Of a stretch of DNA of 42,342 nt, positions 36,492 to 40,617 are shown in pieces. The DNA is taken from positions 1-42,342 of the forward strand of contig JACPBN010000007.1 of the NCBI GenBank assembly GCA_016180275.1. Direction: 5' to 3'. Both the position numbers and the translations under genes were made by a program. The notes under the pieces were generated by a model. It had not been told where the DNA came from. It saw only the letters and a program-made list of their open reading frames with translations, and made no database searches. How positions within the stretch are numbered: position 1 is the stretch's first letter; every line of letters starts with the position of its first letter. This DNA is from Candidatus Woesearchaeota archaeon (GTDB lineage Archaea; Nanobdellota; Nanobdellia; Woesearchaeales; UBA10200).

Positions 36492-36564
36492 GCCCTTGTA
36501 GTATAGCGGTTAATACGGCACTTTCGTAAAGTGCATATCCCAGGTTCAAATCCTGGCAAGGGCT
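36492..36564 (+). tRNA. tRNA-Thr(CGT)
   Basis: GCCCTTG/CAAGGGC acceptor, GCACT-TTCGTAA-AGTGC anticodon arm, CCAGG-TTCAAAT-CCTGG T-arm, followed by a T-run. Confidence 0.95.
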
Positions 36565-38908: not shown

Positions 38909-38944
38909 AAGCTAACTATACTAGTTAGGATATATAAATTTTTC

Positions 38945-38979
38945 TGTTATTTGTAACATCTTTTCTGTTATTTGTAACA
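38945..38979. repeat. Right direct repeat: two 14-bp TGTTA-n4-TAACA palindromes
   Basis: TGTTATTTGTAACA-TCTTTTC-TGTTATTTGTAACA. Confidence 0.7.
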
Positions 38980-39001
38980 TACGAGCTAGAATTAAAGAAA
39001 G

Positions 39002-39209
39002 TGGGGACACTGGGAATTCCTTAAGCAAAGGTTTCCCTTAGGCTTATTTTGAATTTCTGAAGTGATAGTTATTCGCTAACACTCGCCCAGATCCGGGGCT
39101 TTCTTCATGGAAATATTATATCATCGGCTTTCGCCTCATATCTCCAGTTACTGGAGGCCCCTACTCTAGTGTCTTTGAGACATTTCTAGCCAGATTAAAA
39201 TATGTCCCC
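39002..39209 (-). tRNA. tRNA-Trp(CCA) interrupted by four BHB introns
   Basis: Removing 39164-39183, 39101-39150, 39054-39085 and 39016-39047 gives a 74-nt cloverleaf: GGGGACA/TGTCCCC, GGGGC-CTCCAGA-GCCCC, CTGGG-TTCAAAT-CCCAG. Confidence 0.85.
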
Positions 39210-39249
39210 ACTATATCCAGAAAAAGCCTGCGGTTATATAAAAATATTC

Positions 39250-40617
39250 CTACTTCTTCCCGTCAACGTAATACTCTACCAGCTGCTTAACTGCTCTTAC
39301 TGCGCTTTCTGGGAAAGTAAAGCAAGGCACTCCGTTCTCTTCCAAAGATTTGCGCAAGGTCATCGTAAATTCGCCACCTGTAGAAACACATACAATTGGC
39401 TTCTTTCTCAGCTCGTCAAATTCAGAAATGATATCAACAATGTCTGGAGTGATCAAAGGCGTCTGCATCAGAACAAGCACGATTATGATATCTACATTAC
39501 TGTCATTCAAAGCTGCGTCAATCGCCAATCTGTATCTCTCAGTTGTCGCATCTCCTACTAAATCCATTGGGTTGCTGACAACAACTATAGGCGGAAATAC
39601 TTTGCGCAATTCTTTTTTCTTTTTCTCATCCATCTGCGCAAGAGCTAGATTATTATTAACTATAGCGTCTGTTGTAATTATGCCATAGCCTCCGCCGTTA
39701 GTGATTATCTGGACTCTATTTCCTTCTGGCTCAACAGCTTTTTCCAATATTCTTGCTGCATTAAACATTTCTTCCAAAGAAGCAGCGTGGATTATGCCAA
39801 CCTGTCTGAACATCCCAGAGTAAATTGCTGCATTGCCTGCTAAGCTGCCTGTATGGCTCAAAGTAGCCTTGCTGCCTGCCTCTGTTATGCCGCCTTTAAT
39901 TGCAATTACTGGCTTTTTTTTTGTGACATGCTTAGCTACTTCTATGAATTTCTTGCCACGATTTATTCCTTCAACATATAAACAGACAACTTTTGTTTCT
40001 TCATCATTGCCTAAATATTCTAAAATATCTGCTTCATCAAGATTCAGTGCATTTCCATAGCTGATGACTTTTGCAAAACCATAGCCTTCGGTTGTTGCCA
40101 GGTCTAAAATAGTGGAAGCGATTGCACCTGACTGACATGCAAAGCTTATGCTGCCTGGCTTTGGGCGTTTCATGCGATAACGTGGCAGGAATAATGTATC
40201 TAATTTAGTGTAAGTATCTAATGTTCCCAAACAATTTGGGCCGATGATTTTTATTTTGTATTTGTCTAGCAATTTTACTAGTTTTTCTTCTAACTTAAAA
40301 TTACCAATTTCTCTAAAGCCAGCTGTTATCATCACTACGTCTTTAATTCCTTTCTTGCCGCAATGCTCTATTGCTTGCAAAGAAATCTCTGCAGGAACAC
40401 AGCAAACAGCCAATTCAACAGGCTCTTTAATATCAAGAACTGATTTATAGCTGCGGTAATTCAGAACCCTGTCTGCATTAGGATTTACAATATAGATTTT
40501 GCCAGGATAATGCCCGTCAAGAAGATTTCTAAAGACAACATGGCCTATCTTATTAGGATTCTTGCTTACTCCTATGATTGCAATGCTTTTTGCCTTGAAA
40601 AACTTGGTTAAATCCAC
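39250..40617 (-). CDS. acdA: Acetate-CoA ligase (ADP-forming) alpha subunit
   Basis: SIAIIGVS, ITAGFRE, IGPNCLG, QSGAI, SHTGSLAG, TNGGG.G, NPMDL.GDA. Confidence 0.92.
   Translation of the reverse strand: MDLTKFFKAKSIAIIGVSKNPNKIGHVVFRNLLDGHYPGKIYIVNPNADRVLNYRSYKSVLDIKEPVELAVCCVPAEISLQAIEHCGKKGIKDVVMITAGFREIGNFKLEEKLVKLLDKYKIKIIGPNCLGTLDTYTKLDTLFLPRYRMKRPKPGSISFACQSGAIASTILDLATTEGYGFAKVISYGNALNLDEADILEYLGNDEETKVVCLYVEGINRGKKFIEVAKHVTKKKPVIAIKGGITEAGSKATLSHTGSLAGNAAIYSGMFRQVGIIHAASLEEMFNAARILEKAVEPEGNRVQIITNGGGYGIITTDAIVNNNLALAQMDEKKKKELRKVFPPIVVVSNPMDLVGDATTERYRLAIDAALNDSNVDIIIVLVLMQTPLITPDIVDIISEFDELRKKPIVCVSTGGEFTMTLRKSLEENGVPCFTFPESAVRAVKQLVEYYVDGKK

Follow-up and report, generated by a model that had tools for sequence, protein, structure and literature searches.

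A tRNA-Trp(CCA) gene with four introns in the genome of a groundwater Woesearchaeote

We analyzed a DNA stretch of 42,342 nucleotides (nt), hereafter the window, from the Candidatus Woesearchaeota archaeon assembly GCA_016180275.1 (contig JACPBN010000007.1, positions 1 to 42,342 of the forward strand). The minus strand of the window carries, from 39209 to 39002, a 208-nt tRNA-Trp(CCA) gene composed of five exons and four introns. The gene is bounded by the acceptor strands GGGGACA/TGTCCCC and ends with the discriminator A. The four-intron structure is well supported, and we are highly confident that the tRNA-Trp gene is real. The locus is also likely to serve the host as its functional tRNA-Trp(CCA) gene, with four introns that would be cut by the splicing endonuclease EndA and exons that would be joined by RtcB.

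Performing a scan of all cut-site pairs, we looked for bulge-helix-bulge (BHB) motifs, taken as a central helix of 4 base pairs (bp) that lies between two 3-nt bulges, with cleavage after the second base of the bulge. Below, h and h′ denote the outer and the inner helix that flank the central one. The parts of the gene and its two flanking elements, all on the minus strand, are as follows.

39235 to 39242, minus strand: TATA-like box UUUAUAUA, at -33 to -26 from the mature 5′ end, in a flank conserved with a same-genus relative; putative promoter element.
39184 to 39209, minus strand: exon 1, 26 nt; 5′ strand of the acceptor stem, U8, 5′ strand of the D stem, D loop and positions 22-24.
39164 to 39183, minus strand: intron 1, 20 nt, at position 24/25; HBh′ motif with central helix CTAG/CTAG (4/4 pairs), inner helix of 5 bp and no outer helix.
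39151 to 39163, minus strand: exon 2, 13 nt; positions 25-37, holding the anticodon CCA.
39101 to 39150, minus strand: intron 2, 50 nt, at the canonical position 37/38; CUCC/GAAG with 3/4 central pairs (C34-A mismatch) and inner helix of 1 bp.
39086 to 39100, minus strand: exon 3, 15 nt; position 38, 3′ strand of the anticodon stem, variable loop and 5′ strand of the T stem.
39054 to 39085, minus strand: intron 3, 32 nt, at position 53/54; strict hBHBh′ motif with UCUG/CAGA (4/4 pairs), outer helix of 2 bp and inner helix of 5 bp.
39048 to 39053, minus strand: exon 4, a 6-nt micro-exon UUCAAA; T-loop positions 54-59.
39016 to 39047, minus strand: intron 4, 32 nt, at position 59/60; UUCA/AGGA with 3/4 central pairs (one mismatch) and inner helix of 5 bp.
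39002 to 39015, minus strand: exon 5, 14 nt; position 60, 3′ strand of the T stem, 3′ strand of the acceptor stem and discriminator A73.
38994 to 39001, minus strand: T-rich stretch CUUUCUUU, directly 3′ of the discriminator; possible terminator.

Every junction fits the BHB geometry. Introns 1 and 3 have all four central pairs, and introns 2 and 4, with three of four, belong to the relaxed class. Written as central pairs (of four)/outer/inner helix, the geometry is 4/0/5 for intron 1, 3/5/1 for intron 2, 4/2/5 for intron 3 and 3/0/5 for intron 4, such that each intron has a flanking helix of at least 2 bp (h′ of 5 for intron 1, h of 5 for intron 2, h of 2 with h′ of 5 for intron 3, and h′ of 5 for intron 4). 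The outer helix of intron 2 is the 5-bp anticodon stem, and the bulges of intron 3 read GG-C and AA-T, the hyphen marking the cut. The central helix of intron 1 occupies D-loop bases together with G22; thus, formation of the D stem has to await the excision of intron 1. The intron sites, lengths, helices and bulges, the TTCAAA exon and the 74-nt product, all of which had been proposed in a preliminary description of this DNA, are present in the sequence.

Removal of all four introns leaves a 74-nt cloverleaf, which ARAGORN calls as tRNA-Trp(cca). Running ARAGORN on the 16 possible subsets of intron removal, we obtained a tRNA in two of them only, with all four introns out or with introns 1, 3 and 4 out, and both were called tRNA-Trp(cca). 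Intron 2 is tolerated by ARAGORN as a canonical intron when the other three are spliced out, and no subset with fewer than three introns removed yielded a call. The spliced product shows 7/7 pairs in the acceptor stem, 5/5 in the anticodon stem, 5/5 in the T stem and 3/4 in the D stem. The unspliced gene escaped ARAGORN and also the Rfam model RF00005, even at E<=10, as expected from the earlier claim that standard finders would miss it. The earlier reading of the locus as tRNA-Trp(CCA), interrupted by BHB-type introns at the four positions 24/25, 37/38, 53/54 and 59/60, is supported.

We searched relatives and metagenome contigs for orthologues by BLAST and by patterns. In what follows, G000 is the host assembly (the window is contig C61 of its 97 contigs), G001 is a relative of the same genus, G018, G124 and G170 belong to the same order, and L100 to L102 are metagenome contigs. 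The exact pattern of a conserved core in intron 2 occurred in 5 of 401 genomes of the order. Seven further tRNA-Trp loci carry this core, which makes eight in all. The orthologues are listed below.

G001, same genus: 152 nt, two introns, in the D loop after nt 15 (28 nt) and at 37/38; T loop uninterrupted.
L100, metagenome contig: 150 nt, two introns, in the D loop and at 37/38.
G018, same order, closed genome: 220 nt, two introns, at 37/38 and at 59/60 (100 nt, geometry 4/5/1).
G124, same order: 134 nt, one intron.
G170, same order (L102 has the identical sequence): 121 nt, one intron.
L101, metagenome contig: 178 nt, three inserted segments relative to its best references, G018 and G124.

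The orthologues thus carry one to three introns, and the G000 gene has the highest number among the eight loci. Introns at position 59/60 are also carried by G018 (100 nt), L101 (25 nt) and the tRNA-Gln(CUG) of the host. In L101 (positions ~300-480), the 25-nt intron at 59/60 is a strict BHB intron, and another insert sits where the variable loop meets the T stem. The relatives hold one tRNA-Trp each, in a syntenic place, and the 5′ flank with the TATA-like box and the neighboring gene is common to G000 and G001. Scanning the metagenomes with this conserved 5′ flank gave no match; the same scan with the intron 2 core gave three loci, one of which duplicates G170. We also observed that the conserved neighbor gene lies 3′ of tRNA-Trp in L100 and on the 5′ side in G000 and G001 (window 39250-39300), so that the tRNA gene is inverted relative to its neighbor in L100.

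Aligning the 208-nt gene globally with each spliced orthologue, with no BHB information, we recovered exactly the same four inserts against G001 and G018 (two of the four references). Against G124, introns 1 and 2 came out identical and the micro-exon was placed 7 nt upstream (39055-39060); the intron 1 segment was recovered alike against G001, G018 and G124. The alignment with G170, the most divergent reference, was fragmentary. Gap-free alignment of the spliced product with the three 74-nt orthologues gives 77-81% identity; the 73-nt product of G170 aligns with it at 71% and needs one gap. The T loop of the G000 product matches those of G001 and G170. Pairing holds in 101 of 105 stem cells over the five spliced sequences, and double-sided (compensatory) changes are found in 11 of the 21 pairs. 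The pair 7:66 is A-U in G000 only, which points to selection acting on this copy.

An exon-chain search was run on both strands of the 97 contigs, with the reversed genome as a decoy. Acceptor pairs served as anchors; the T arm was searched backward and the remainder forward, with up to five relaxed-BHB jumps and a penalty of 1.5 points per intron. The finder required U8, A14, G18-G19, U33, R37, U55-C56-R57-A58 and at least 6/7 acceptor pairs. Introns of 10-180 nt were allowed within a span of up to 460 nt, excluding the acceptor stem and positions 61-65, and the genome-wide run took variable loops of 3-5 nt. Among the 1174 candidates from the real genome, a clearly separate upper group of 27 loci scored at least 20 and included the ARAGORN and Rfam tRNAs. 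The tRNA-Trp locus scored 21.5, a value that none of the 1929 decoy candidates reached, and the T-arm search at the locus returned a single solution, the two-intron one. The margin over the decoy is modest because each intron costs 1.5 points. The intrinsic evidence alone would not settle the case; the comparative evidence makes it strong. The finder misparsed class II tRNAs (corrected), one Val(UAC) and the 37/38 intron of L101, and it missed the U54-C55 loop of G124, so intron counts for genes other than tRNA-Trp are approximate.

Whether this is the only tRNA-Trp of the genome, a check named earlier, can be answered for the 76%-complete assembly. The locus is the sole candidate with a CCA anticodon at 21.5, the next one scoring 14.5, and BLAST of the locus against the genome gave no second tRNA-Trp copy. 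In contigs from three runs of one groundwater study, the gene is present in full or short of only its last base and shows no differences; a contig from a fourth run covers part of it. No intron-less DNA form was seen among the contigs of these four DNA runs. Using blastn-short (E<0.05), we found no other copy of any of the four introns in the genome; hence, there is no sign of intron transposition within the assembly.

We checked the genome for the splicing machinery. EndA is encoded by a single gene on contig C45 (185 amino acids, PF02778 and PF01974, E 3.6e-29), with close relatives in Candidatus Woesearchaeota, Nanoarchaeota and Nanoarchaeia. Among solved structures, the protein is closest to 3iey_A, the alpha subunit of N. 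equitans, and to 1a79, the alpha4 enzyme of M. jannaschii. The alignment with 1a79 is gap-free over residues 45-185, and within this range no insertion relative to M. jannaschii is seen. The protein is six residues shorter than 3iey_A just before the catalytic His, and the N. equitans insertion at this place may correspond to loop L3. The closed genome G018 has a single EndA match as well, a 185-amino-acid frame, and G001 and G170 each have a second, sub-threshold match. A single gene of ~180 amino acids with the N-terminal and catalytic domains, and with no beta subunit gene seen in the 76%-complete assembly, agrees with the alpha4 type. RtcB is encoded on contig C83 (E 1.7e-147). Its match (C83:2692-4410) falls into two overlapping pieces, profile positions 1-117 and 45-426, within one 628-amino-acid frame; this frame is longer than the 426-position profile and may hold an insertion.

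We propose the following pathway. The TATA box 26-33 nt upstream would direct transcription, which would stop in the T-rich stretch and give a precursor of ~210-220 nt. The single alpha-type EndA would cut the four introns at their BHB motifs, and RtcB would join the exons. The complete hBHBh′ motif of intron 3 would make this intron the first to be cut and ligated; the T stem would then meet the 59/60 motif and complete it. Such an order would keep the 6-nt exon covalently attached, never as a free hexamer. Intron 2 would be an ancient, conserved tRNA-Trp intron with a kink-turn (K-turn) and half a guide, predicted to direct 2′-O-methylation of C34. Introns 1, 3 and 4 would be lineage-specific gains, as they are absent from the same-genus orthologue in G001.

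The order of events in the T loop deserves separate consideration. The outer helix of motif 3 (precursor nt 117-118/158-159) and the central helix of motif 4 (157-160/189-192) share U55 and C56; thus, the complete motifs 3 and 4 cannot coexist. The outer helix of intron 4, the T stem, abuts its motif only once intron 3 is out, in agreement with the preliminary description, which held that the 59/60 outer helix forms only after removal of the 53/54 intron. Folding the precursor and every intermediate with RNAfold, at 37 °C and at 15 °C, we find that the T stem probability rises from 0.01 before removal of intron 3 to 0.21-0.54 after it (37 °C). If all T-loop cuts came before ligation, the hexamer would be set free and probably lost. 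The ordered splicing proposed earlier therefore fits the geometry, through the T stem and the shared U55 and C56; it is less secure as an obligation, as an enzyme that accepts HBh′ motifs could cut intron 4 first. We regard an obligatory order in the T loop as a tentative suggestion.

The explanation that competes most seriously, and which we likewise hold to be possible rather than established, is that the four introns are real and are removed independently, in any order, by an EndA that accepts HBh′ motifs. Intron 1, without an outer helix, must be cut as an HBh′ motif, and the same tolerance would permit intron 4 (3/4 central pairs, inner helix of 5 bp) to leave first. The motif of intron 3 stays unchanged if intron 4 goes first, and RNAfold shows no clear thermodynamic preference among the splicing orders. 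Against independent removal stand the mutually exclusive use of the same bases by the complete motifs 3 and 4, the probable lack of a stable tether between the 6-nt exon and the tRNA body if everything were cut first, and an EndA that appears to lack the known specificity-loop insertion of N. equitans. The stronger proposal, that a plain alpha4 EndA devoid of the known specificity loops acts on relaxed introns at non-canonical sites and that mutually exclusive motifs impose an obligatory cut-ligate-cut-ligate sequence on the T loop, appears doubtful to us. If it were true, a broad substrate range would be uncoupled from loop insertions, and archaea would have an RNA-encoded control of splicing order.

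Several observations weigh against the locus being a working four-intron gene. The central helices of introns 2 and 4 have one mismatch each and intron 1 lacks an outer helix; the motifs of introns 2 and 4 carry little weight alone. The 4-bp central helices have low RNAfold probabilities, 0.00-0.42, in every context. The D stem of the spliced tRNA-Trp has a U10-U25 mismatch. The EndA, with no insertion against M. jannaschii alpha4 in residues 45-185, looks like a type that PMC5829648 describes as strict for canonical BHB. One decoy candidate of the exon-chain search reached 20.0, just 1.5 below the tRNA-Trp locus (the next was at 18.5). As the assembly is 76% complete, another tRNA-Trp could sit in the missing part. 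The expression of the gene, its splicing and its 74-nt product are predictions from the DNA, and we count this on the same side.

These points could suggest that the locus is a decaying or silent relic, with the working tRNA-Trp encoded in the quarter of the genome that the assembly lacks. The 76% completeness, the weak BHB motifs at introns 2 and 4, the D-stem mismatch, and a transcription deduced from sequence features would all suit such a relic. However, the four stems are intact save for U10-U25, and they carry compensatory, lineage-specific changes such as the A7-U66 pair unique to G000. The promoter flank is conserved with G001, the gene is identical in the contigs of three runs, the relatives have one syntenic tRNA-Trp, and BHB geometry is retained at every junction. 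We consider a relic very unlikely. A real gene parsed otherwise, with another T-loop hexamer or with one large T-arm insert removed by a non-BHB route, is still more improbable: the G124 alignment does put the micro-exon at precursor nt 150-155 and not 157-162, and the boundaries of intron 4 could move by one base and still leave a 7-nt loop, but only 157-162 yields the canonical U54-U55-C56-R57-A58 loop, identical to those of G001 and G170, only this hexamer gives BHB geometry at both junctions (the T-arm search having a single solution), and the G001 and G018 alignments support it.

Intron 2 holds a conserved K-turn-like core. The G001 match is 92% over a 74-base stretch that holds intron 2, and its core occurs also in G018, G124, G170 and L100 to L102. 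Two elements make up this core.

39120 to 39139, minus strand: K-turn-like element with a D′-like AUGA, a GGC-GAAA-GCC hairpin and a C′-like GAUGAU.
39142 to 39147, minus strand: guide CUGGAG, complementary to the anticodon region.

In an alternative fold of intron 2, CUCCAG pairs with CUGGAG, followed by AUGA, the GGC-GAAA-GCC hairpin and GAUGAU. The core (guide, AUGA, hairpin and GAUGAU; window 39120-39147) is kept in the eight loci, including L002, L003, L013, L014, L100 and L101. In G000, G001, G018, G124 and G170, the partner of C34 is the fifth base upstream of AUGA, and the C34-A mismatch of the central helix is conserved in G001 and G018. The Rfam model sR47, a C/D small RNA, matched intron 2 weakly, with an E of 0.38 and a score short of the gathering score. 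We found no terminal box C in intron 2, where only half of a box C/D guide is evident; position 39 is G, and no guide for position 39 is evident. Fibrillarin is encoded in the host genome. Intron 2 looks like a K-turn with half of a box C/D guide aimed at C34.

The host is a Woesearchaeote (DPANN), a groundwater archaeon and not a member of the Thermoproteales. Its assembly comprises 1.37 Mb in 97 contigs with 35.8% G+C. ARAGORN found nine tRNAs, and Rfam found 17 over its cut-off, eight of them 97-167 nt long. The tRNA set is rich in introns, with C90:2474-2627, C81:9638-9797 and C42:312-478 among the examples; by the finder and hand checks (counts approximate), most recognizable tRNA genes of the host have one or two introns. 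The tRNA-Gln(CUG) gene (C90:2474-2627) has three, at ~21/22, 37/38 and 59/60, a parse backed by the paralogue Gln(UUG). The tRNA-Trp gene is the only well-supported four-intron gene in this genome.

Some further features of the genome were recorded. At C76:8677-8851, a 175-nt tRNA-like locus combines well-formed acceptor, D and T arms with a 33-nt insert at 59/60, and further inserts break its anticodon arm; this may be another gene carrying at least three introns. The assembly has tRNA-Thr(CGU) in two uninterrupted copies, at 36492-36564 of the window (plus strand), 2.4 kb from tRNA-Trp, and at C67:8189-8261. Between the 3′ end of tRNA-Trp and the start of the next minus-strand gene, the window holds two tandem 21-bp repeats (38939-38979), each with the palindrome TGTTA-N4-TAACA; this is the only such site in the genome, and similar stretches occur on other contigs of the groundwater runs. 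The repeats may be an operator.

The gene resembles the multi-intron tRNA genes established in Thermoproteales, for which passages of PMC4033280 and PMC8450103 give a maximum of three introns. Passages of PMC8450103 also describe close introns in two- and three-intron genes, where one must leave before the BHB of the second can form. The likeness extends to BHB introns in the D arm, in the T loop and at 37/38, to introns so close that the BHB of one may depend on the loss of the other, and to removal by EndA, which is predicted here. The differences are four introns instead of three, a mesophilic DPANN archaeon instead of a hyperthermophilic crenarchaeon, and a single alpha-type EndA instead of an (alpha-beta)2 enzyme with the crenarchaeal loop. 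The preliminary description had stated that up to three introns are known and that four would be exceptional. This agrees with the two papers above, but an Asgard preprint (10.64898/2026.10.13.758758, October 2026) gives up to five intervening sequences per tRNA gene.

In Asgard genomes, 92-95% of tRNA genes are interrupted, as stated in a passage of PMC11291895. The two systems share interruption of most tRNA genes, non-canonical introns, misses by the finders and repeated gains in close relatives; they belong to different phyla. DPANN, Woesearchaeota and Nanoarchaeota are named 0 times in the text of the preprint, and our literature searches found no four-intron tRNA in DPANN or Woesearchaeota.

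A eukaryotic parallel is the nuclear tRNA-Ile of C. merolae, whose three introns interrupt the D stem, position 37/38 and the T loop; a passage of PMC3728597 reports intermediates, detected by reverse-transcription PCR, that show a preferred order, introns 1 and 3 being out before intron 2. That gene has a single T-loop intron, and the order was observed there, whereas we predict it here. Within DPANN, the closest likeness is the ARMAN-2 pre-tRNA-Cys, with an intron at the same 59/60 site and a relaxed motif (hBH). Its enzyme, as described in passages of PMC5829648, is an epsilon2-type EndA with a specific loop, in contrast to the only candidate enzyme here, which is a 185-amino-acid alpha-type protein. 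The same passages (Kaneta et al.) tie a broad EndA substrate range to inserted loops (L1/L2/L3), describe the alpha4 type as strict for canonical BHB, and mention for DPANN both alpha4 enzymes that bear loops and disrupted tRNAs not yet identified. The preliminary description had deduced a broad-specificity splicing endonuclease, for which the 185-amino-acid protein is the only candidate found. The present gene offers a test of whether the substrate range of an alpha4-type enzyme can be broad in the absence of known loops. With its 6-nt exon between two introns, it also lends itself to a stringent test of the coordination between cleavage by EndA and ligation by RtcB.

For intron 2, the counterpart is the tRNA-Trp intron of Haloferax volcanii, described in a passage of PMC4090602 as a nested box C/D guide that selects C34 and U39. 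The tRNA, the 37/38 position, the guide pairing with the anticodon region and the predicted C34 target are the same. The intron here has 50 nt against the median of 65 nt given there, it shows only an internal C′/D′-like K-turn, and position 39 is G.

The gene extends very heavy interruption of tRNA genes to DPANN, and its four introns exceed the "up to three" of the papers of 2014 and 2021. Such interruption helps explain the seemingly incomplete tRNA sets of these genomes. Between two species of one genus, three introns have been gained or lost and a D-arm intron sits at a different site, which makes G000 and G001 a close pair for the study of intron origins. Set beside the known systems, this tRNA-Trp gene is an extreme case of a known kind of gene, and it is among the most interrupted tRNA genes outside the Asgard archaea.

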